Origin: a virus
Taxonomy: Duplodnaviria > Heunggongvirae > Uroviricota > Caudoviricetes
Reading direction: 5' to 3' (one strand)
IMG/VR virus record: IMGVR_UViG_2706794686_000017
Length of the DNA: 40,805 bases
The stretch's first letter is position 1; each line of letters begins with the position of its first letter. A model generated the notes under the pieces. It did not search any database, was not told the DNA's origin, and worked only from the letters and a program-made list of their open reading frames with translations. The position numbers were made by a program, and so were the translations under genes. Shown here piece after piece: positions 13,946 through 28,986 of the stretch.

Positions 13946-15256
13946 TTAAATCCGAAGTGATGTGACTCTTCCGGTCGGTTTGACAATAGGGAATTGCTTA
14001 ACGATGAAATAACCTCCGGCATCATTCGGGTGATCATTGCCAGATTTTTTATCAGGCTCCCCCTTCTCATCCCAGACCTGTTGCTCCAGAGATTCGGCAT
14101 ATAACGGGCAACGCTTCACATTAACTTTATAGCGACGCTCACCATTGGCATTGCAGAACATTGCATTCATTGAGTTAACGCGATCTTTTACTGGCGGGTT
14201 CGAGCTGTTCACCACAACGTTAAAACCAGCCTGCTTAAGCTGGGCTATATCCGTCGTACTTGCGTTACTTGATTTTCTGGAATCCCCGGAAGCATCTGGA
14301 TAAATATAAATTTCCCTCACTTTCCGGTAATCATTCCCATCATACAGCCAGAAGCGTTCTTTAATGATGCGGATCATATCCGGCGTATCGTAGGCATTGA
14401 TGATTTCAGTTACCGCACATGGAAGCCCCAAACGCAGCACATGGACGATTCCCGCCATCTTTCCAACGTTAAAATCCATCCCAATATAAATCGGCTCCCC
14501 TGGCTGCTCCACTTCTTCGCAATTATTCAGTTTCCGGTCAAACTGATGGTAAACAGTACCACTTGTCAGGTTAGTAAACTGTCCTCGAAGATAGGCTTTA
14601 ATCAGCTCTGGAGGGTATGATTCAAGAAGCGAAGGAATGTAATCTGCTGGCAGGTTCTTTTCATTATCGAAAGTAGATGCCTGCACCAGACCATACAGTG
14701 AGGCCAGCTCTGTTTTTTCACGCACGGCTTTAACAAACTGCTCGTAGACAAATTTGAATCCTTCCGGCGTGGTTGTAACGTCAATACCGTTGCGAAGTCC
14801 ATCAATCTTATAACGCATACGTGCAATTATCTTGCGCCACGCCGTTCTGGCTTTTTCCTTCGGCAAAATGTCCAGTTCATCCACCAACGCATTACCAATT
14901 TTGAAACCGACGATCGTTTGTGGCTTCTCCATCGATCTGCAGATAGTGGTTCCCCGATACTGGCGTCCGTAATAAAAGTGAACCTCTTTATTTCCCTCAT
15001 TAATTTTTACGTTCAATCCCCAGTCAGCAGCAACTTCTTCCACTGTAGGGTAAAAAATATCGCGAATTTGGGGATACGTTGGCGCAAAATATCCCTGATT
15101 TATACCTGGATGCTCCCAAATCCCCTTGCATATGCCGCCACACCCAACCCATGTTTTGCCCGAGCCAAAACCAGCAATATAGGCTTTAAATTTATGGGGC
15201 ATTGAAAGAAATCGCGCCTGAGGCACATTAAGCGTCGGAGAGATCATCTTCATCAC
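13946..15256 (-). CDS. Terminase large subunit
   Basis: 436-aa ORF with Walker A-like YIAGFGSGKTW near the N-terminus and acidic nuclease-like motifs in the C-terminal half. Confidence 0.85.
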   Translation of the reverse strand: MMKMISPTLNVPQARFLSMPHKFKAYIAGFGSGKTWVGCGGICKGIWEHPGINQGYFAPTYPQIRDIFYPTVEEVAADWGLNVKINEGNKEVHFYYGRQYRGTTICRSMEKPQTIVGFKIGNALVDELDILPKEKARTAWRKIIARMRYKIDGLRNGIDVTTTPEGFKFVYEQFVKAVREKTELASLYGLVQASTFDNEKNLPADYIPSLLESYPPELIKAYLRGQFTNLTSGTVYHQFDRKLNNCEEVEQPGEPIYIGMDFNVGKMAGIVHVLRLGLPCAVTEIINAYDTPDMIRIIKERFWLYDGNDYRKVREIYIYPDASGDSRKSSNASTTDIAQLKQAGFNVVVNSSNPPVKDRVNSMNAMFCNANGERRYKVNVKRCPLYAESLEQQVWDEKGEPDKKSGNDHPNDAGGYFIVKQFPIVKPTGRVTSLRI

Positions 15257-16322
15257 TCCTTACTCTGGCATCAACCACATTAATATTGATCGCCACAGGC
15301 TGGGGATGTTCATTATCTTCCACCGTTTCGATCTCTTTGCGCAGCTTCTGGTTTTCCATTCTGCGCCGTTCAATTTCCAGTTCCCGTAGCCGCTTATCTG
15401 CACATAAAGCCCCGCCAGCAGAAAACAAACGCAACAATTCACGCCGGGCGGCAGCCTTATCCTCCAGCAGGATCTCAACGCCGAATTTTCCGAATTTTGC
15501 CCCTGCATATAATTGCCGCGCATCCCCATCAAGCAGAGTGGTATCAGCCATATAAAGCTGTCCCGTTCCCTCACCGCAGCACTTCGGGCAGTCCGGATTG
15601 GGTATGGCGTTATCAACAAAGCCGAGGCCTCCATATTCCGGTTCGGGTTTGCCATCTCTGGAAGCCTGCGCCGCTGCCTTGTCGAATTCTGCTATATCGC
15701 GCCACTGGTAGAGATGATTCTCGCCCCAGCAATAACGGCAGTTAACACGGCGAAATTGTGCAAGCTGATTGGGGTCGGCCAGGACAATAGCCATCAACTG
15801 ACTCACTAGTAAATCCAGGTCTGCGGTATAGCGTTTCTGGTACTGATTGCGGAAGTAGCTGATAGCGCGAAAAACCCTGGCATTTCTAAGCATACGACTG
15901 GCGTTGCTGTTAGCTGTCGCACCTTGCCCCTCATAACCGGCTAGTCGGTACGCCTCTGTCGGCTTTTTACCCTGAGCAACAAGCATCGCAAACTTAGCCT
16001 GCTGGTCAGAAATGCCGAATTCATCGGGACAGAACGAAAATTCCTCCGCGTCGCCCTCATTCAGGCCCGCATCGAATACTGGCTTTTTTTCCTGAGATTT
16101 TTCGTTCCGCTTTTGTGCAGTCTGCGCAGATTTTTTCTGCGCACTTTTTTGCGCAGTTTTGCACATTTCTGTCTGCGCATTTTTCGGAGTTTTTTTGATG
16201 TAACGACGGGCTGTTGCGTAATTCAGTCCCCTTGCTTCACACCATGCCACCGGAGATATACCGGAGCGGGTGTATTCAGCAATATACTCCTGCTGCAACG
16301 CCCCCCAGTCCGGTCTGCTCAT
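15228..16322 (-). CDS. Terminase small subunit
   Basis: 364-aa ORF with N-terminal helix-turn-helix-like segment, overlapping the start of the large subunit gene. Confidence 0.65.
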   Translation of the reverse strand: MSRPDWGALQQEYIAEYTRSGISPVAWCEARGLNYATARRYIKKTPKNAQTEMCKTAQKSAQKKSAQTAQKRNEKSQEKKPVFDAGLNEGDAEEFSFCPDEFGISDQQAKFAMLVAQGKKPTEAYRLAGYEGQGATANSNASRMLRNARVFRAISYFRNQYQKRYTADLDLLVSQLMAIVLADPNQLAQFRRVNCRYCWGENHLYQWRDIAEFDKAAAQASRDGKPEPEYGGLGFVDNAIPNPDCPKCCGEGTGQLYMADTTLLDGDARQLYAGAKFGKFGVEILLEDKAAARRELLRLFSAGGALCADKRLRELEIERRRMENQKLRKEIETVEDNEHPQPVAININVVDARVRSDEDDLSDA

Positions 16323-16325
16323 CAG

Positions 16326-16577
16326 TTAGTCCTGATTTTTATCCACCCTGAGTAGTTCGCGCAGAGCAAAGGCATCCCCTTTTCTGGCAAGCTTAAACAA
16401 TGCCGCTCGTAACTCGGCTTCACCTTTCGCTCTGCCCTTACGGATGGCCGCATAAAAATCTGTCATTGCTTCCCGATTTTCTTTCAGTCGGTTCAGATCA
16501 ACATCCAGAACGTCAGCGATTTGTTGTGCAGTCATCCGGCACGCTGCCAGAGACTCGACTTTCGAATACGGAATCAT
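16326..16577 (-). CDS. Small DNA-binding (HTH-like) phage protein upstream of terminase
   Basis: 83-aa ORF (MIPYSKVESLAACRMTAQQIADVLDVDLNRLKENREAM...); start may be an internal Met. Confidence 0.45.
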   Translation of the reverse strand: MIPYSKVESLAACRMTAQQIADVLDVDLNRLKENREAMTDFYAAIRKGRAKGEAELRAALFKLARKGDAFALRELLRVDKNQD

Positions 16578-17445
16578 TTGTCACCCCCATTGATATGCAG
16601 GGTGTCTTCTTCCTGTATTTTTCGTGAAGGATTTTTACTGCAGCGTTGTTCCAGGTGACCTGATGGTGAATGCGTTTATGACTGGCACCCATAAGTGAGA
16701 TTTTTACGCACGACGGCGCATACATGACGGAGTAAAAACTTTTAACGTAGGTTCCGGAATCCAGATACAGCTCGGTCATTCCGCCGCTGTTTTTCTGCGT
16801 CTGTTTCTGCCCTAACTGGACAGCACCGATCGTCATAAACAATTCACCACAGCGACCGAGATTCGTGTACGTATTCACATCCTCGTTAATGCGCCCCATG
16901 AATGAGAACGGTCGATCAACCGAACAGATAAAGCTGTTCATTGCCTTGCGTTTCACCCACGAAGCATGGCCGCCATTGTCACCAAGAAAATCCCCGCCCT
17001 GCGACATAGCGATGGAAAGAGCAGGTATTGATTCGTAGTACGCAAGCATTTCAGAAAGGATCTCATCCAGTTTCCTTATCGGGAAATAGGCCTGGTCATA
17101 GTTGCGATCCACCCGAAACTGGAACTCGTGATAATCATCATCGAGCTGAATGAAGTATTTACACCCGACCAGTTTTGCCTGGTCGAAACAGGCATTACGG
17201 GCGTAAAAAATTGAGCGGCGGTCACTAAAATTATCGGCTTCGTCAAAACGACTAGCAATATCGGCTTTGGAAAATACCAGCACCTGTTCACCAAATTCAG
17301 CCATGTACTGATGCCGTGTCTTATCTTCATCATCAACAACGATAAAAATTTTCCCGGTATAGCCAGCACGACGCAACGTCCGGTAAGTCAGAACTTTGTC
17401 CGGTCGCCCGTGAGTCAGAATAAAGGCGCAAAAATCATCACGCAT
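16513..17445 (-). CDS. GT-A-fold (GT2-like) glycosyltransferase-like protein
   Basis: N-terminal CAFILTHGRPDKVLTYRTLRRAGYTGKIFIVVDDED and downstream FIQLDDDYHEF (DxD) fit the GT2 pattern. GGAGGAGG ribosome-binding site before ATG 17445; alternative ATG at 17463. Confidence 0.5.
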   Translation of the reverse strand: MRDDFCAFILTHGRPDKVLTYRTLRRAGYTGKIFIVVDDEDKTRHQYMAEFGEQVLVFSKADIASRFDEADNFSDRRSIFYARNACFDQAKLVGCKYFIQLDDDYHEFQFRVDRNYDQAYFPIRKLDEILSEMLAYYESIPALSIAMSQGGDFLGDNGGHASWVKRKAMNSFICSVDRPFSFMGRINEDVNTYTNLGRCGELFMTIGAVQLGQKQTQKNSGGMTELYLDSGTYVKSFYSVMYAPSCVKISLMGASHKRIHHQVTWNNAAVKILHEKYRKKTPCISMGVTNDSVFESRVSGSVPDDCTTNR

Positions 17446-18246
17446 ATTCCTCCTCCCCGCCATGCATGATCTCCACCATGCGCTGCGTCATTCGGACAAA
17501 TCCATTTTCAATAGCCTGCTGATAATCAATGATCACCAGCGCCGACTCCTCGAAAAGGCACTGAATTTCAGCGGGGGCATGAGCGTAATAGTCCGCAATT
17601 CTGCTGAAATTAAACACCGTGTGACGTTCTGCTGCACACAGGAGGAATTTCTCAATATCAGGATCAAGGGACGCCGAACGTATCCGGCTGATCAGCTCCT
17701 GAGTTTTCGTATCGTCGTACAGTTCACTGATATCCGGTTTACCGCCTGACGGCTCATAAACAGGCGTATCAATTTTCGTCGTATACGGCTCCTCCTCATT
17801 TCCTGTACCGGGCAAAACATCCGTCAACAGTTCATCAATTTCTGCCGGGATGAAGCCTGTCAGGGAGACATCAAAATCAGCATTGATTAGGTCCGACAGC
17901 TCCATCCGCNNNNNNNNNNNNNNNNNNNNNNNNNNNNNNNNNNNNNNNNNNNNNNNNNNNNNNNNNNNNNNNNNNNNNNNNNNNNNNNNNNNNNNNNNNN
18001 NNNNNNNNNNNNNNNNNNNNNNNNNNNNNNNNNNNNNNNNNNNNNNNNNNNNNNNNNNNNNNNNNNNNNNNNNNNNNNNNNNNNNNNNNNNNNNNNNNNN
18101 NNNNNNNNNNNNNNNNNNNNNNNNNNNNNNNNNNNNNNNNNNNNNNNNNNNNNNNNNNNNNNNNNNNNNNNGTGCGTCCTGGCGTTGTGCGCATACGGTG
18201 ACAATTCTTGTAATGGGCGATAGACTATCTTTAATTTCTCGCTCAT
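17438..18246 (-). CDS. ParB N-terminal domain (ParB-like nuclease) protein, interrupted by N-run 17910..18171
   Basis: N-terminus MSEKLKIVYRPLQELSPYAHNARTH is typical of ParB/Srx-like domains; acidic C-terminal part follows the N-run. Confidence 0.55.
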
Positions 18247-18383
18247 ACAGCCTTGCTTTATGAATAAAACGCACCCCAGCAGCCAGTGCTACTGGGGGCG
18301 GAGGTGTTGCTGGTAAAGTTAGGTATTGGATCAATGAGTGAGTCAACATAATATTAAACTCACAATTATAAATCAGCCATATA

Positions 18384-19841
18384 TTAGGAGCGCCAAAAAA
18401 AACCTGAAAACAATATAATAACAGGATAAATTTCAAGGCGACCAAGAATCATAGCTATGCACATTAAATATTTTGCAATGTCATTAAGCACTCCGAATGA
18501 CGATGCAGTAGCCCCAAAACCTAATCCCATATTATTAATACATGCAGCCACTGTTGCAAATGATGTAAGAAAATCATATCCCATACCATTTAACACCAGT
18601 ATAAAAAACACCGTGAAGAGAGTATAAAGAAAAAAGAAACTCCATACAGACCTCATTACACGATCTGTAACTATCTTCCCTCCTACATTTACACTCAACA
18701 ACGCTCTGGGATGAGAAAGCTGATTTATCTCGTGTTTGCTTTGTTTGAAAAGTATAAGAAATCGAAGTGACTTAATTCCACCACAGGTTGAACCTATACA
18801 TCCCCCAAAGAAACTTGACAACAGCAAAAACACTATCGTGTGCGTGGGCCAGTTTGCATAATCCTGCGTAGCTAAACCATTATCAGTGAGCATGGAGCTG
18901 GCAAGAAAAAACGAATGAATAAAACTTCCATGCAAGTCATACATACCTATATGCCAGACCTGGAAAGAGGTAACAATGATCACCCCTAAGGCTATTAACA
19001 GAAAGAAACGAAGTTCAATATCTCTGATTAAAGGTTTTATCGTTTTTCTGCTAATAACAATATACCAAAGAGTGAAGTTGAAAGCCGATAGCAGGGAAAA
19101 AGAACCAGCCACCAGCTCAACCAAATAGTTATTAAAATATCCGATACTCTCGCTATGAGTTGAGAAACCACCAAGCGAAACTGTGGAAATCCCGTGACAA
19201 ATAGCATCAAACAAAGGCATTCCTGCAAGTCTATAACAGACAATACAAGCAATACCTAATAAAGAATAAGTTATCCACAGTGTCCGTGACGTATCGGCCA
19301 GGCGGGGAGTGAGTTTGTCATCCTTAAATGGCCCCGGCATTTCTGACTGATAAAGCTTTGCACCACCAATACCCAATAATGGCAATACTGCAACCGCCAG
19401 AACAATAACTCCTAAACCACCTATAAAATTTAACTGTGACCGATAGTACAAATATGCCCGAGGTAATGAACTAACATCATCAATTACAGTTGCTCCTGTT
19501 GTTGTTATTCCAGAAACCCCTTCAAACAGAGCATCAATGAACGTTAAATTAAGTTCTGAGTCAATCCATAAAGGGAATGCACTAATAACAGAAAACAAAA
19601 TCCAAAACATTACAATTATAATAAACCCATCACGGGTACGTAATTGAATGCCAGATTTCTTAGTTGTATACCACGCTCCGCCACCAATGCAAAAAAATAT
19701 AACGAAAGTTATAAAGAAAACGAACAGGCTTTTTTCTTTATAAAACAATGCTACAACCATTGGTGGCAACATTGAAAGACTATAGAGCCAAACCAGGAAC
19801 CCACACATATGAGTAACAACTCTTACATGAGATGTATTCAT
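18384..19841 (-). CDS. trkG: Trk-system potassium uptake protein TrkG (TrkH/KtrB family)
   Basis: 485 aa from MNTSHVRVVTHMCGFLVWLY; polytopic membrane protein with repeated pore-loop glycine motifs; matches the Rac-prophage-encoded TrkG as recalled. Confidence 0.85.
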   Translation of the reverse strand: MNTSHVRVVTHMCGFLVWLYSLSMLPPMVVALFYKEKSLFVFFITFVIFFCIGGGAWYTTKKSGIQLRTRDGFIIIVMFWILFSVISAFPLWIDSELNLTFIDALFEGVSGITTTGATVIDDVSSLPRAYLYYRSQLNFIGGLGVIVLAVAVLPLLGIGGAKLYQSEMPGPFKDDKLTPRLADTSRTLWITYSLLGIACIVCYRLAGMPLFDAICHGISTVSLGGFSTHSESIGYFNNYLVELVAGSFSLLSAFNFTLWYIVISRKTIKPLIRDIELRFFLLIALGVIIVTSFQVWHIGMYDLHGSFIHSFFLASSMLTDNGLATQDYANWPTHTIVFLLLSSFFGGCIGSTCGGIKSLRFLILFKQSKHEINQLSHPRALLSVNVGGKIVTDRVMRSVWSFFFLYTLFTVFFILVLNGMGYDFLTSFATVAACINNMGLGFGATASSFGVLNDIAKYLMCIAMILGRLEIYPVIILFSGFFWRS

Positions 19842-19978
19842 ATCTAAATATTCTTTCAATTATAACCACCTTGCTGCAATATTATGATTATACTGTATAA
19901 AATTTAACTCCTCTTAGATCTTACTTCACTGTTCCTTATGAAACAATCATCAAAATGAATCATATTGTAGTTAAGATT

Positions 19979-20443
19979 TTACTTTAAACACTGCTCGGTT
20001 ATGTATTGCTGAGCACCTTCAAGTTGGGCCTGCATCATTACCAGTCGTTCCCGGAGGGTGAAATAATCCCGTTCAGCGGTGTCTGCCAGTCGGGGGGAGG
20101 CTGCATTATCCACGCCGGAGGCGGTGGTGGCTTCACGCACTGACTGACAGACTGCTTTGATGTGCAACCGACGACGACCAGCGGCAACATCATCACGCAG
20201 AGCATCATTTTCAGCTTTCGCATCAGCTAACTCCTTCGTGTATTTTGCATCGAGCGCAGCAACATCACGCTGACGCATCTGCATGTCAGTAATTGCCGCG
20301 TTCGCCAGCTTCAGTTCTCTGGCATTTTTGTCGCGCTGGGCTTTGTAGGTAATGGCGTTATCACGGTAATGATTAACAGCCCATGACAGGCAGACGATGA
20401 TGCAGATAACCAGAGCGGAGATAATCGCGGTTACTCTGTTCAT
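19979..20443 (-). CDS. rz: Inner-membrane spanin Rz
   Basis: ORF with N-terminal transmembrane segment then coiled coil, overlapping the endolysin stop. Confidence 0.8.
20038..20223 (-). CDS. rz1: Outer-membrane lipoprotein spanin Rz1, embedded in Rz in the +1 frame
   Basis: 61-aa [26 protein letters not shown]... with lipobox and proline-rich [15 protein letters not shown] region. Confidence 0.8.
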
Positions 20444-21357
20444 TGCTGACCCCACAAACAGATTTCACGCTCAATCTCACGACGAGTCATGAGACCTTTC
20501 CATTGCTTACCGCCAGCATATGTCCAGCGACGTAGCTGATCACATGCGCCTTTGATATCGCCCTGGTTTATTTTGCGAAGAAGCGTCGATGTTCTGAAAT
20601 TGCCAGCACCCACGTTGTAAACGAATGAGTAAAGAGCGCCGCGCGTTGTTTCCGGTATATCGACTTTGATGTACGGGTTAATTTGTCTGGCGACAGTGGC
20701 AAGGTCTTTATTCAAGAGTGTTTTGCATTCTGCTTTGGTATACGTTTTACCGAGCATGATGTCTTTTCCTGTATGCCCGTGACATACAGTCCATACACCA
20801 ACAATATCTTTGTATGGTATGTAGCTGACACCTTCCAGACCATCGTTACCACTTGGGCCAGTGATTAACACTGATGCTATAGCAATTGCTCCGCCACCAA
20901 TAGCAGCAGCAACNCCTTTCCATTGCTTACCGCCAGCATATGTCCAGCGACGTAGCTGATCACATGCGCCTTTGATATCGCCCTGGTTTATTTTGCGAAG
21001 AAGCGTCGATGTTCTGAAATTGCCAGCGCCCACGTTGTAAACGAACGAGTAAAGAGCGCCGCGCGTTGTTTCCGGTATATCGACTTTGATGTACGGGTTA
21101 ATTTGTCTGGCGACAGTGGCAAGGTCTTTATTCAAGAGTGTTTTGCATTCTGCTTTGGTATACGTTTTACCGAGCATGATGTCTTTTCCTGTATGCCCGT
21201 GACATACAGTCCATACACCAATGATATCTTTGTATGGTATGTAGCTGACACCTTCCAGACCATCGTTACCACTTGGGCCAGTGATTAACACTGATGCTAT
21301 AGCAATTGCTCCGCCACCAATAGCAGCAGCAACGACTTTTCGTAATGATGGAGGCAT
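20440..21357 (-). CDS. Endolysin (lysozyme with N-terminal signal-anchor-release-like segment); ORF carries an in-frame tandem duplication at the single N (20914)
   Basis: [44 protein letters not shown]... followed by a second near-identical 140-codon copy; an unduplicated gene would encode about 165 aa. Confidence 0.75.
20495..21333. repeat. Tandem direct repeat, 2 x about 420 bp (20495..20913 and 20915..21333) joined at N 20914
   Basis: The two copies differ at only three positions seen by eye (gccagcaccc vs gccagcgccc; acgaatgagt vs acgaacgagt; caacaatatc vs caatgatatc). Confidence 0.85.
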
Positions 21358-22369: not shown

Positions 22370-22798
22370 TCAGGGTTTAAAATCCAGCACCCCATTTTGA
22401 AATACTTTATATACTTCCGGCGAAGGGGGGGCAGGTATATCAGCATTCTTTATCGCATTCATCGCTTCACGACATAAATCGAGGTCTCCACTTTCTCTTT
22501 TAACCTCCAGTAGAAGGCCATTCGGGGCCATATGCATTCTCAGTGTACACTCTTTTCCTGAATACTTACTCGCATCCCCGAACTGTTTTTCGATGGCGCT
22601 CTTGATTTGATGGGCATACAGACGGATATCCTCACTAACATCAGAAGTACGTTCAGATGAACTCACATACTGTGTCTCTATTGCTTTATCGGAGTAATAT
22701 GATGTACGGTCATGATAATTTGTCGATACAGCATCAGTGCACCCGATAATAATCCCACTAATAATCAACGTAAGAATTGATGCGCTACGAAAACCCAT
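22370..22798 (-). CDS. Lipoprotein with TolA C-terminal (domain III)-like domain, paralogue 2
   Basis: Signal peptide and lipobox IIGC; C-terminus HQIKSAIEKQFGDASKYSGKECTLRMHMAPNGLLLEVKRESGDLDLCREAMNAIKNADIPAPPSPEVYKVFQNGVLDFKP closely resembles the E. coli TolA C-terminus as recalled. Confidence 0.65.
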   Translation of the reverse strand: MGFRSASILTLIISGIIIGCTDAVSTNYHDRTSYYSDKAIETQYVSSSERTSDVSEDIRLYAHQIKSAIEKQFGDASKYSGKECTLRMHMAPNGLLLEVKRESGDLDLCREAMNAIKNADIPAPPSPEVYKVFQNGVLDFKP

Positions 22799-25811: not shown

Positions 25812-25834
25812 AAGATGCATTTTTAATGCATGTT
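25812..25834 (+). promoter_or_regulatory. NsrR-like operator (11-1-11 inverted repeat) upstream of the YeaR-like gene
   Basis: AAGATGCATTT-t-TAATGCATGTT; the half-sites match each other at 9 of 11 positions and resemble the NsrR consensus as recalled; a TTGACA lies at 25795..25800. Confidence 0.5.
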
Positions 25835-25849
25835 TTGGAGGAGGTGGTT

Positions 25850-26188
25850 ATGACACACAAGAGAATTCCTAAAGATTGGGTAATCAAACGCTCAACTCCG
25901 TTCTTCACAAAAGAGAACGTACCTTCAGCGTTATTAACACATCATAATACAGCAGCAGGTGTTTTTGGGCAGTTGTGCGTAATGGAAGGCACTGTAACAT
26001 ATTATGGTTTTACTGATGAGAATGCTACTGAACCGGAGATAAAAGTAGTCATTAATGCTGGCGCTTTTGCAACAAGCCCACCACAATACTGGCACCGTGT
26101 TGAACTAAGCGATGATGCTCAGTTTAATATTAACTTTTGGGTCGCTCCAGACTTTTCGGGCGAAAAAGTCTATAGCACCAAAAAATAG
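25850..26188 (+). CDS. YeaR-like DUF1971-family protein
   Basis: GGAGGAGG ribosome-binding site then ATG; 112 aa MTHKRIPKDWVIKRSTPFFTKENVPSALLTHHNTAAGVFGQLCVMEGTVTYYGF...; only plus-strand gene in the late/nin region. Confidence 0.5.
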   Translation: MTHKRIPKDWVIKRSTPFFTKENVPSALLTHHNTAAGVFGQLCVMEGTVTYYGFTDENATEPEIKVVINAGAFATSPPQYWHRVELSDDAQFNINFWVAPDFSGEKVYSTKK

Positions 26189-26808: not shown

Positions 26809-27810
26809 TTAGTAATCTGCGTGTTTCGCACTTTTCAGAAATGCTTTCATATTTTCATTAGGTCGCTCAATTTCGAAGTTACTTCCATATAACTCTTGTA
26901 ATTTTGGCCATAACTTACTTAATAACCCTCTCCTGCGATAAAATGGATGTATCCAAACGGTAGATAGGTACGGAGAATTTGCATTTGAATTGTTTATTGT
27001 GACCAGCCCAACTAAACATTGTCGATAACCACTATTATCCATTGATTGTATTTCTTCGACGAATGGATACGCGATTACATCAGTCCAACCATGATCGGTT
27101 GTATCCCATTGCATTCCGTCATGACATTCCTTCGACTGATAGCGGCGTAAAGCTACACACGCGAGCTTTTGCCAATCTGGAGAATTAATTGTGATCTCTT
27201 CATCGTATGACGCGCCTATTGGAGCGGGTATTGGTCTGATTAATCCAGCATGGCATTCATCATAGAACTTCATGTTTCCCTCAGAAACGTTGTGTACGTT
27301 GGGTTGCTCCATGTGTGCGCCATTCAAAAATAGCTCTGATAGTAGTGTATCTACACTGTAATCTTTATTGATTATTGTCGGCTTAGAGTTTTTCTTATTA
27401 AGGCCGCGAGTAACGATTTTTTGATCAATGTTAACAACATGGAATAATCCGTCGGGGAGGCTAGCGAACCACGATGGGGCATCGGACCAGAATAGCATGC
27501 CTTTTGTACTTCTTAAGAGTTTAATTAAGTTAATACAAGCTTCTTCACTAGTCTTGCCGTTGATGCGAAGTATGTTAGGACTAAAGTAATATTCATCCAT
27601 ATCAGGGAATGCAGCTTCGCAAAACTCCTGTACATAATTTAGCACCTGGATTCTACAGAGATCATCATAGCTGGTAATAACTAAGGGGGTATCTTCATTA
27701 CTATTATGATTATCAATAATGCAATCTATAGCGAGACTTACTGCTTTGCGTATCACTTCAGTTGAATCTAACGACTCTAAAAATTTTGTCTTTCGTGTGC
27801 GAATATCCAT
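26809..27810 (-). CDS. Hypothetical protein (333 aa) with C-terminal GNAT-like acyltransferase-fold signature; second gene of AT-rich cargo operon
   Basis: AT-rich ORF 15 nt downstream of the preceding gene; C-terminal LVGLVTINNSNANSPYLSTVWIHPFYRRRGLLSKLW...NENMKAFLKSAKHADY resembles GNAT motifs A and B; N-terminal 230 aa unassigned. Confidence 0.45.
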   Translation of the reverse strand: MDIRTRKTKFLESLDSTEVIRKAVSLAIDCIIDNHNSNEDTPLVITSYDDLCRIQVLNYVQEFCEAAFPDMDEYYFSPNILRINGKTSEEACINLIKLLRSTKGMLFWSDAPSWFASLPDGLFHVVNIDQKIVTRGLNKKNSKPTIINKDYSVDTLLSELFLNGAHMEQPNVHNVSEGNMKFYDECHAGLIRPIPAPIGASYDEEITINSPDWQKLACVALRRYQSKECHDGMQWDTTDHGWTDVIAYPFVEEIQSMDNSGYRQCLVGLVTINNSNANSPYLSTVWIHPFYRRRGLLSKLWPKLQELYGSNFEIERPNENMKAFLKSAKHADY

Positions 27811-27825
27811 GTATGACCTGCGCTA

Positions 27826-28848
27826 TTAAAATTCATGAATGAACGGTTTGTCATCTGGTTGCAAAATGGTGGTTTTATTCGTTGCTACATTTAAACTGTT
27901 GTAGAGCATAATTGCCAGGTTCGATGCATTTTCAATCAGCGTTTCAAGATCCTGGTCTGTAATCACTACGAGGTTCCCTTCTTTATCCTTTCCACCACGA
28001 TGCACTAAGTGATTTCGATTGAGGGTTGCCAATTCAATAGCTTCTATCGGACAGTCTTTTTGTACTTTTATATCGAATGTAGCTTCATAGCGGTCGATTA
28101 CCTTTTTAGTGCTATGCCAGCTTGCACTGATCAAGTGTTCCTTGATTGACCTGATTAGCTCTCCCCTAATTTTCTCGATGGGTTCACCCTTGAAAGGCAA
28201 CGCAGCAATATCTTTGCTTACTTTAAATTCAGTCTTACCTTTTTCTATACAATTGGCTATGTAGACATCATCTTTCTCTATAGAATTAATGAATAGCTCA
28301 ACATAAAGCGTTTCCAAAGCTGTAATAACATTCGTGTAGAGCAAACTAAGCAAGTGGTTTTTTTGCTGTTGTTCAGTTTTATCTTTTGCAAGTTTTTTTA
28401 TTTTATCGATATTATCAATGAATTTTAAATACGGATTACCGGAAGACGTTACAGCGTCGTAGATATCATCATCGTACCAATCATCTATATTATTTGAGTT
28501 TCCAGACCAGTCAAAACATTGTGTTTGTAATTCATCTACTAATTCCTCAATATACTCAGATTTAACATATTGACCGAAGATGGATTGTAGTTCTTCGCTC
28601 GCATCATACGGCCCGCCATATATGTAAGCATAGCCACCTTCTCTACTTTCATACGGACAAGCATTTGCCGGATCTTCAAAGTTTTCAAAGAACCAGTTTT
28701 TCATTACTTCGAGTTGATCTTTTTTGCTTATGTATTTTAAAGATTTTAGTGGAACTTTCTTTCCATTAACCTCGAAAACAATTTTCACGATGTAACGCTC
28801 CCTTGTATCAATTGCGCAACTATTATACCACAGCGAAATACAGGGCAT
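27826..28848 (-). CDS. Hypothetical protein (340 aa) with HEPN-like R-x4-H motif (possible Abi-like RNase); first gene of AT-rich cargo operon
   Basis: ATG at 28848 preceded by AAGGAGG at ideal spacing; AT-rich codon usage; LATLNRNHLVHRGG near the C-terminus fits the HEPN R-[NHQ]-x3-H pattern. Confidence 0.45.
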   Translation of the reverse strand: MPCISLWYNSCAIDTRERYIVKIVFEVNGKKVPLKSLKYISKKDQLEVMKNWFFENFEDPANACPYESREGGYAYIYGGPYDASEELQSIFGQYVKSEYIEELVDELQTQCFDWSGNSNNIDDWYDDDIYDAVTSSGNPYLKFIDNIDKIKKLAKDKTEQQQKNHLLSLLYTNVITALETLYVELFINSIEKDDVYIANCIEKGKTEFKVSKDIAALPFKGEPIEKIRGELIRSIKEHLISASWHSTKKVIDRYEATFDIKVQKDCPIEAIELATLNRNHLVHRGGKDKEGNLVVITDQDLETLIENASNLAIMLYNSLNVATNKTTILQPDDKPFIHEF

Positions 28849-28876
28849 AACCTGCCTCCTTAAACTAACATACCAT

Positions 28877-28902
28877 GAGCCAGCAATGTCCGCTATTGGC
28901 AC
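28877..28902 (-). promoter_or_regulatory. 8-bp inverted repeat (TGTCCGCT / AGCGGACA, 10-nt spacer) in the leader of the cargo operon
   Basis: Perfect inverted repeat between a TTGACA hexamer and the AAGGAGG ribosome-binding site of the 27826..28848 gene. Confidence 0.35.
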
Positions 28903-28986
28903 AAAGCGGACAACCACGCTAGCTCTCCCCTGTGCCAGAAAAATGTCAATTTACATATGAACTAATGCTCTTTGATCTAGTAACGT

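Follow-up and report, generated by a model that had tools for sequence, protein, structure and literature searches.

Glycosylation of phage DNA is a classic counter-defence. The DNA analysed here (the window; 40,805 nucleotides of the IMG/VR virus record IMGVR_UViG_2706794686_000017, class Caudoviricetes) corresponds, according to genome comparison, to a Rac-type lambdoid prophage beside ttcA and harbours two overlapping genes, one coding for a ParB-like protein (the partner) and the other for a glycosyltransferase of the TAGT family (TET-associated glycosyltransferase). Both open reading frames (ORFs) are located where an earlier note, made from the sequence alone, had placed them, i.e. on the minus strand between trkG and the terminase genes. 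The pair most likely represents a TAGT DNA-glycosyltransferase system with a dedicated ParB-like or clamp-motif adaptor, for which no known handle-making enzyme was found among the genes scanned. The main points added to the earlier note are the C-terminal domain of the partner (the C-domain), the obligate pairing of the two genes, and the failure to find a hydroxymethyl-pyrimidine pathway in the same set of genes.

TAGT DNA glycosyltransferases, which include the beta-glucosyl-HMC-alpha-glucosyltransferases of T2/T6 and the enzymes associated with TET/5mYOX, share the Pfam family PF20691, the GT-A fold and the R...DDD...ED signature with the transferase of the window. They use glucosylated hydroxymethylcytosine (glucosyl-hmC) or 5-hydroxymethylcytosine (5hmC) provided by a dCMP hydroxymethylase or by a methyltransferase acting together with TET (PMC13216743; 10.1101/2023.12.21.572611), whereas the subfamily described here has no such pathway among the neighbouring genes scanned and is always accompanied by the partner domain. 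Many solitary TAGT/GT-A genes, with ParB and terminase neighbours in aggregate, have been recorded in surveys and left unexplained (PMC13216743; 10.1101/2023.12.21.572611); 'solitary' TAGTs of undefined function were counted in 288 of 753 phages (PMC13216743).

ParB-like proteins, in turn, are known as activators of the phage thymine dioxygenases (5mYOX; O'Toole et al., PNAS 2026, PMC13229309). Such an activator consists of a ParB nucleoside triphosphate (NTP)-binding domain and a C-terminal domain and lacks an obvious DNA-binding domain. Its gene adjoins that of an enzyme modifying DNA after replication, frequently with terminase and glycosyltransferase genes close by, and the dioxygenase requires the activator specifically on double-stranded DNA (PMC13229309). 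The domain layout, the lack of an obvious DNA-binding domain and the position beside a putative DNA-modifying enzyme are all met with in the window. Here, however, the neighbour is a glycosyltransferase, no dioxygenase was found among the ORFs scanned, and the C-domain of the partner is associated one-to-one with TAGT and can occur without a ParB domain. DNA methyltransferases fused to a ParB domain frequently have their genes directly ahead of those for terminase. Their N-terminal module (phrog_498; PADLOC MTase_II; PMC12704722) is closely homologous to residues ~3-141 of the partner, but in the fusions module and catalytic domain form one polypeptide, whereas here the module carries a coupling domain without catalytic function and the enzyme is a protein of its own.

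Pairing of transferase and partner across viruses

Conservation of the pair was assessed by alignment-based scans; an earlier single-protein scan of viral contigs had returned near-identical E. coli prophages only. The TAGT-anchored set comprised 88 loci, 80 of them from a scan of one genome per species and eight added to these, and the scan reached Bacteroidota, Clostridia, Veillonella, Desulfovibrionaceae, Planctomycetota, Saccharibacteria, an archaeon and other taxa. In 87 of the 88 loci the C-domain is encoded upstream of TAGT on the same strand, the lone exception being cut by the end of the contig. The two genes are adjacent or overlap in approximately 82 loci, and in the five loci with a gap the insert is either a second TAGT paralogue or a gene for an S-adenosylmethionine (SAM)-dependent methyltransferase. 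Conversely, when viral contigs were anchored on the C-domain, TAGT was found directly downstream in all 80 of them. The C-domain family itself counts 1224 representatives at 50% clustering and nearly always forms the C-terminus of a protein of 250-300 amino acids.

In a protein-level search of cultured phages, counterparts of the transferase with 40-47% amino acid sequence identity turned up in Lactobacillus phages phi jlb1 and c5, Nocardia phage NTR1, the haloarchaeal virus HHTV-2 and Vibrio phages (~190 kb), and one with 27% identity in a Porphyromonas phage. The partner gene lies immediately upstream in each cultured phage examined, overlapping or abutting that of the transferase. Clustering of all 1981 genes called in 166 loci placed TAGT in 150 loci and the partner in 135; the next family, a large terminase, was present in 36, and no third gene family common to the loci emerged. 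The pair is thus an obligate two-gene module in viruses of both bacteria and archaea, and its members very probably act as one functional unit. Neither the obligate partner domain nor the class with the clamp motif was found described in the literature searched.

No partner domain occurs within 4 kb of the T4-like TAGT of Aeromonas phage 65, hence the partner marks a distinct subfamily of TAGT. That a partner domain is fused to this enzyme, in its N-terminal extension of 108 amino acids, was considered as well and rejected, as no hidden Markov model match was obtained.

The constant element of the partner consists of a conserved peptide and a helical domain, while the N-terminus varies. A ParB-type N-terminal domain is fused in 96 loci; 13 further loci have a long N-terminus which was missed by the profile and which, as judged by eye, is a divergent ParB domain in at least some of them; and in 51 loci the partner is short (~132 amino acids). 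The short partners begin with MKQ[ITVF]N[LM]F[GS] in 44 of 49 cases. This start (MKQxNLFG) is compatible with the consensus for binding to the bacterial beta clamp, Q-L-x-L-F (PMC4549789). The consensus is a weak one, and the resemblance concerns the short partners, not the E. coli protein.

The genomic context of the module tracks the class of adaptor, ParB-fused partners being found before terminases and short ones in replication modules. At least 54 of the 96 ParB-fused loci contain a labelled TerL cluster, and approximately 43 of 60 first large ORFs downstream of such pairs encode TerL, representing several different Pfam families. Short partners mostly occur among replication and recombination genes, such as those for PolA, primase-helicase, DnaB, PD-(D/E)XK and YqaJ proteins, ERF and recombination exonucleases. 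In three loci a DnaN-like clamp gene lies directly beside the short partner, and in Vibrio phage pv27 the pair is situated between primase, exonuclease and helicase genes. A DNA glycosyltransferase that is brought to newly made DNA via the replication machinery is already known, since T4 alpha-GT associates with the T4 replisome (PMC13216743). The motif of the short partners and their location beside DnaN and PolA suggest the same logic, although T4 alpha-GT has a GT-B fold, works without an adaptor protein and uses 5hmC.

A minority of modules encode additional enzymes, namely a second TAGT, SAM methyltransferases of class I, either fused or as inserts, and, in one case, a UDP-galactopyranose mutase. 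A radical SAM protein is encoded in five loci, directly after TAGT in L147, L149 and others, and an amidoligase in three (L203/L206 among them). In L152 TAGT is fused to a SAM methyltransferase, and in L121 a methyltransferase is fused to the N-terminus of the ParB-type partner. Extra enzymes of this kind are typical of DNA hypermodification clusters; they may elaborate the sugar or create its acceptor, and might offer the best hint at the reaction involved.

Domain composition of the two proteins

The partner is composed of a ParB/Srx-type NTP-binding domain at the N-terminus, a linker, the conserved peptide and the small helical C-domain. The earlier note had recognised the ParB/Srx-type N-terminus by its motif, which is not a chance one, since the protein reaches 29.3 bits with Pfam ParB_N (PF02195; cut-off 26.3); the fold of the domain agrees as well. 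The partner also matches PHROG 620 (E = 2e-90), and its residues 10-141 match the N-terminal module of the ParB-methyltransferase fusions (phrog_498, E = 6e-51; PADLOC MTase_II, E = 2e-38), the homology extending over the ParB domain and the helices that follow. These matches, together with the activation of thymine dioxygenase (PMC13229309), bear out the remark in the same note that ParB-like domains of phages are linked to DNA-modifying enzymes.

Residues R23, S36, G41, G57, R60 and N93 are invariant in 89 homologues of the partner. The first five align with the QPR, SI..G and GERR motifs of Myxococcus xanthus ParB, with N21 and R23 opposite Q52 and R54, and N93 aligns with ENL of Noc. Roles in NTP binding are ascribed to the arginine of box I, the GxxR of box II and the asparagine of box III, with a serine and a glycine in contact with the cytosine (PMC13229309). 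According to these alignments, the nucleotide-binding residues of the ParB-CTPase fold are retained in the partner; at positions implicated in CTP hydrolysis, Q is replaced by N and E by H. The conserved peptide contains the invariant residues Y148, P155 and Y157, yet it is predicted to be disordered (confidence score pLDDT <50 over residues 137-155), and might be where the transferase docks. Pfam and PDB searches with the C-domain gave no match.

Unlike the canonical ParB/Spo0J/Noc/KorB proteins, which are CTP-dependent DNA clamps, the partner has no complete helix-turn-helix DNA-binding domain and is not accompanied by ParA. Its assignment as a canonical partition ParB (ParABS) was rejected: the partition model TIGR00180 aligned with the N-terminal domain alone and scored 38.1 against a cut-off of 58.45, fold searches with residues 140-262 gave no ParB-like match, and no ParA is annotated in the matching prophage. 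The score with the NCBIfam model for Noc was likewise far under the cut-off. HNH proteins serve as nuclease cofactors for terminase in cos phages, and the partner might similarly be a cofactor of the terminase nuclease, or function in partition, with the transferase merely belonging to the same operon. Such a separation of functions would accord with the annotations 'partitioning protein' and 'ParB-like nuclease' and with the position upstream of the terminases, but it is rendered exceedingly improbable by the coupling seen in both directions (87 of 88 and 80 of 80 loci), by the C-domain and not the ParB domain being the constant part, and by the TIGR00180 score, the lack of an annotated ParA and the integration of the prophage next to ttcA.

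The transferase matches Pfam TAGT (PF20691) with 118.8 bits (cut-off 27.5; E = 4e-34; profile positions 4-205 of 205), and the same family was found in its homologues. The motifs FIVVDDED and FIQLDDDYHEF, from which a GT-A glycosyltransferase with a DxD site had been proposed in the earlier note, are indeed present, and the proposal is supported by the fold and by the invariance of DDD. The protein has the R...DDD...ED active-site signature, known from the GT-A enzymes acting on phage DNA (10.1101/2023.12.21.572611). Its search against NCBIfam did not reach any model, and that against PADLOC gave no defence-system assignment. Although PHROG 842, the family of the transferase, carries the name of the T-even beta-glucosyl-HMC-alpha-glucosyltransferase, this label is not transferable: identity to a T4-like TAGT is only 22%, and genes for dCMP hydroxymethylase and alpha-GT were not found among the ORFs scanned in this lambdoid prophage.

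The gene is likely to start with the ATG at 17445 (310 amino acids, MRDDFCAF...), which is used by all homologues, rather than at 17463, from which the longest ORF extends over 316 amino acids. This start overlaps the stop codon of the partner by 8 nucleotides, and the two genes are probably translationally coupled. The genes are under clear purifying selection, with 0.13-0.14 nonsynonymous substitutions per site (dN) relative to the Serratia and Superficieibacter orthologues; synonymous sites are saturated, hence no dN/dS ratio is given.

Proposed mechanism and substrate

The two overlapping genes would be expressed late in infection, directly ahead of the terminase genes, and their products would form one functional unit. 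Its catalytic subunit would be the 310-residue transferase, an inverting-type GT-A enzyme of the TAGT family supplied with a nucleotide-sugar donor. The conserved C-terminal part (peptide and helical domain) of the 262-residue adaptor would couple to the transferase, while its N-terminal ParB-type NTP-binding domain would keep the complex on double-stranded DNA, in the manner of the ParB-like proteins that serve phage DNA methyltransferases and thymine dioxygenases. As the genes would be read together with the late operon, phage DNA would become glycosylated after replication and before packaging. Related phages have the clamp-motif-like N-terminus instead of the ParB domain; in them, the enzyme would travel with the replisome clamp.

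An adaptor function of the partner is suggested because characterised TAGT-type enzymes act on DNA, because the ParB module is also found in DNA methyltransferases, because phage ParB-like proteins activate thymine dioxygenase specifically on double-stranded DNA (PMC13229309), and because a minority of loci hold the enzymes typical of DNA hypermodification clusters. One must bear in mind, however, that a number of points, the failure to find a handle-making enzyme included, weigh against the mechanism as outlined: we infer the physical association of the partner with the transferase, the tethering to DNA and DNA as the substrate, and the clamp-binding consensus is, as mentioned, a weak one. 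To our knowledge, all known DNA glycosyltransferases need a hydroxyl handle, be it 5hmC, 5-hydroxymethyluracil (5hmU) or 5-hydroxycytosine. In the dioxygenase system, the ParB-like protein with mutated NTP-binding residues was still functional (PMC13229309), so that a clamp mechanism is not established even there. Moreover, GREB1, a eukaryotic relative, is reported to glycosylate a protein (PMC7968844). Taken as a whole, DNA tethering combined with DNA glycosylation by a transferase with a ParB-like adaptor seems to us evenly poised between being right and being wrong.

As for the handle, neither TET/JBP nor a hydroxymethylase was found among the ORFs scanned in the window, in the recurrent neighbour families of the 166 loci or among the genes inserted between partner and TAGT, and the annotations of two complete phage genomes, c5 (31.8 kb) and phi jlb1 (38.3 kb), list neither. 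The census of neighbours covered the best 25 of the 63 families present in at least three loci, so that rare TET/JBP neighbours could escape it. An association with TET/JBP or hydroxymethyl-pyrimidine enzymes, which is a contextual trait of the TAGT family and does not define membership by sequence, was accordingly not observed; nor was a cognate dioxygenase, such as the 5mYOX-associated ParB proteins have, found alongside the partner among the ORFs scanned, and TAGT follows the C-domain in all 80 contigs.

The transferase might nevertheless work on DNA containing 5hmC or 5hmU only, and either be idle in this prophage or depend on an unrecognised hydroxylase encoded elsewhere. The Pfam family is named for its association with TET/JBP, the characterised GT-A relatives use 5hmC, ParB, glycosyltransferase and 5mYOX genes occur together in many metavirome contigs (PMC13229309), and some hypothetical proteins of these phages are without assignment. 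We regard this dependence as very improbable, for the pair is kept under purifying selection in hundreds of lineages without a recurrent third gene, no candidate is annotated in the two small phage genomes mentioned above, and TET/JBP was not seen in the neighbour families covered by the census. Furthermore, the region was matched in 1610 of 5426 complete E. coli genomes, and in 795 of the 5426 the match extends over 80% or more of the query.

The remaining readings are that the acceptor belongs to ordinary DNA, implying new chemistry, that the target is something other than DNA bases, or that there is an unrecognised hydroxylase. In the first, a ParB-type domain or the replisome clamp would keep the GT-A enzyme on the duplex, and the enzyme would put the sugar directly on ordinary DNA, i.e. 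on a canonical base, a host-methylated base or the backbone, without any hydroxymethyl or hydroxy handle. This is proposed tentatively, and is somewhat doubtful.

The earlier note had considered DNA and the virion alike as targets of glycosylation. The latter is disfavoured, because the same pair is found in replication modules with a clamp-binding-like motif instead of the ParB domain. In a broader form, protein glycosylation could be directed at the capsid, portal, terminase or beta clamp, or at the Tyr/Thr-rich peptide of the partner itself in a glycogenin-like priming reaction, and the partner would then be a substrate or a targeting subunit and not a DNA tether. The activity reported for GREB1 provides a precedent, but on the whole a protein target seems unlikely.

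RNA, free or signalling nucleotides, or DNA ends might also be acted upon by the complex, e.g. in anti-defence. In favour of this, no hydroxymethyl handle was found among the genes scanned, and ParB/Srx-fold kinases of small substrates (SerK, SbnI, sulfiredoxin) are among the fold matches of the partner. The short partners, however, are devoid of any ParB/Srx domain, which is therefore dispensable for the chemistry; duplex DNA is favoured by both genomic contexts, replication and packaging, as well as by the clamp-like motif, and no data favour any specific substrate of this group, which we consider quite improbable.

If DNA is indeed the substrate, the chemistry would be new, and ParB-like or clamp-binding adaptors would represent a general means of delivering methyltransferases, dioxygenases and glycosyltransferases. 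A sugar attached without a handle would, if real, constitute a new chemical class of DNA modification, overlooked until now, in temperate E. coli phages, lactobacillus phages and haloarchaeal viruses. The glycosyltransferase subfamily is very widespread, and its dedicated adaptor, seemingly built to ride DNA, is always present.

Gene order in the prophage and the K-12 deletion

The coordinates of the features discussed are collected in Table 1.

Table 1. Features of the transferase/partner module and adjacent genes (positions in the window)
Feature	Position	Strand	Remarks
trkG	19859..18384	-	upstream of the ParB-like/transferase pair
terminator-like hairpin followed by T-run	18274..18297	-	just past trkG, 28 nucleotides 5' of partner start codon; consensus match only
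partner (adaptor) gene, full-length form of ynaK	17438..18246	-	from ORFs; 262 amino acids in the closest genome, EC2
visible start of ParB/Srx domain, MSEKLKIVYRPLQELSPYAHNARTH	18172..18246	-	includes N21 and R23
N-run	17910..18171		262 N; masks part of partner gene
conserved peptide, YTTKIDTPVYEPSGGKP	17735..17785	-	family consensus YTxKIxxPxYEPxGxxP; alignment and structure model
small helical C-domain	17492..17734	-	motifs FLxxAAxRH, YYAHA, SALVIID; constant companion of this TAGT subfamily
transferase gene	16513..17445	-	310 amino acids, TAGT-family GT-A; ATG at 17445
invariant DDD (D102-D104)	17134..17142	-	DxD motif, predicted metal and nucleotide-sugar binding; homologue alignment, signature from 10.1101/2023.12.21.572611
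N187-E188-D189 in conserved GRINEDVNTY	16879..16887	-	candidate catalytic base region, ED of R...DDD...ED
small ORF	16326..16577	-	between transferase and terS
terS	16322..15228	-	downstream of transferase and small ORF
terL	15256..13946	-	after terS

The partner gene starts at 18246 and, after the N-run, continues as an open frame of 156 codons to the TGA at 17438-17440. That an N-run hides part of this gene, as the earlier note stated, is correct, but its length is not to be taken literally. The 262 N put the two halves of the gene out of frame, whereas in E. coli EC2, both flanks of which are 100% identical, the hidden stretch measures 242 bases and the ORF of 262 amino acids is intact; the run in the window is therefore not of true length. 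The gene is accordingly known to be intact in EC2, the corresponding part of the window being masked. In EC2 this ORF is labelled by PGAP as a truncated ynaK pseudogene, yet the frame is open through to the stop codon.

The earlier note had also supposed that both genes survive as remnants in the Rac prophage of E. coli K-12. For the partner this is the case: collinearity of K-12 with EC2 extends to codon 85 of the partner, where K-12 jumps 11.6 kb to ydaY, and K-12 YnaK (87 amino acids) is what is left of the adaptor at its N-terminus, comprising no more than most of the ParB domain. The transferase, on the other hand, is wholly deleted, together with the terminase, portal, head and tail-tube genes. 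Nor is ydaY its remnant, as this unrelated gene lies between the tail tube and tape-measure genes in EC2. K-12 is thus a natural deletion mutant of the module that keeps the first 85-87 codons of the partner. The MG1655 ynaK gene corresponds to positions 18246..about 17990 of the window and its last two or three codons, at the junction of the deletion, are foreign. In a 2026 overexpression screen, K-12 ynaK raised the minimal inhibitory concentration of six antibiotics and was named the 'most interesting' gene (PMC12924614); what was expressed in that antibiotic-survival screen can now be reinterpreted as a truncated fragment of the adaptor. In many other E. coli-like proteins the first 60-75% of the transferase or partner is joined to tail-fibre, Lom/Ail or other prophage domains, which suggests recurrent deletions in Rac-type prophages with end points inside these two genes, as in K-12.

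Several cargo genes break up the late region of the prophage. The insert with trkG, the gene for a potassium transporter, separates the lysis cassette from the module; behind it comes a terminator-like hairpin of its own, which, going by its match to the consensus, would set the insert apart from the module. Other cargo ORFs encode a protein with a TolA C-terminal domain (22370..22798) and a DUF1971 protein (25826..26188, plus strand). The small ORF between the transferase and terS, of 83 amino acids at longest and 69 as annotated, aligns to positions 145-218 of the terminase small-subunit PHROG (E = 8e-23) and may represent a DNA-binding part of the small terminase that has become separate; other phages do not keep it with the module.

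The lysozyme ORF (20440..21357, minus strand, 305 amino acids) contains a 99%-identical direct repeat of 300 nucleotides with a spacing of 420 nucleotides (copies at 20495-20794 and 20915-21214), which abuts a single N at 20914. Its counterpart in EC2 is one rrrD gene of 498 nucleotides. Hence, the repeat looks like an assembly or scaffolding duplication and not a real tandem duplication and, together with the wrong length of the N-run at 17910, suggests that gaps in the window sequence are not length-faithful.

Two adjacent minus-strand ORFs of the early region (26809..27810 and 27826..28917, 333 and 363 amino acids) are without a firm family and without a match in PADLOC, and one of them is frameshifted in EC2. 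With one weak match each, to a GNAT acetyltransferase (E = 9e-4) and to HEPN/RES N-terminal domain 1 (E = 2e-4), they could represent a toxin or defence-like insert.

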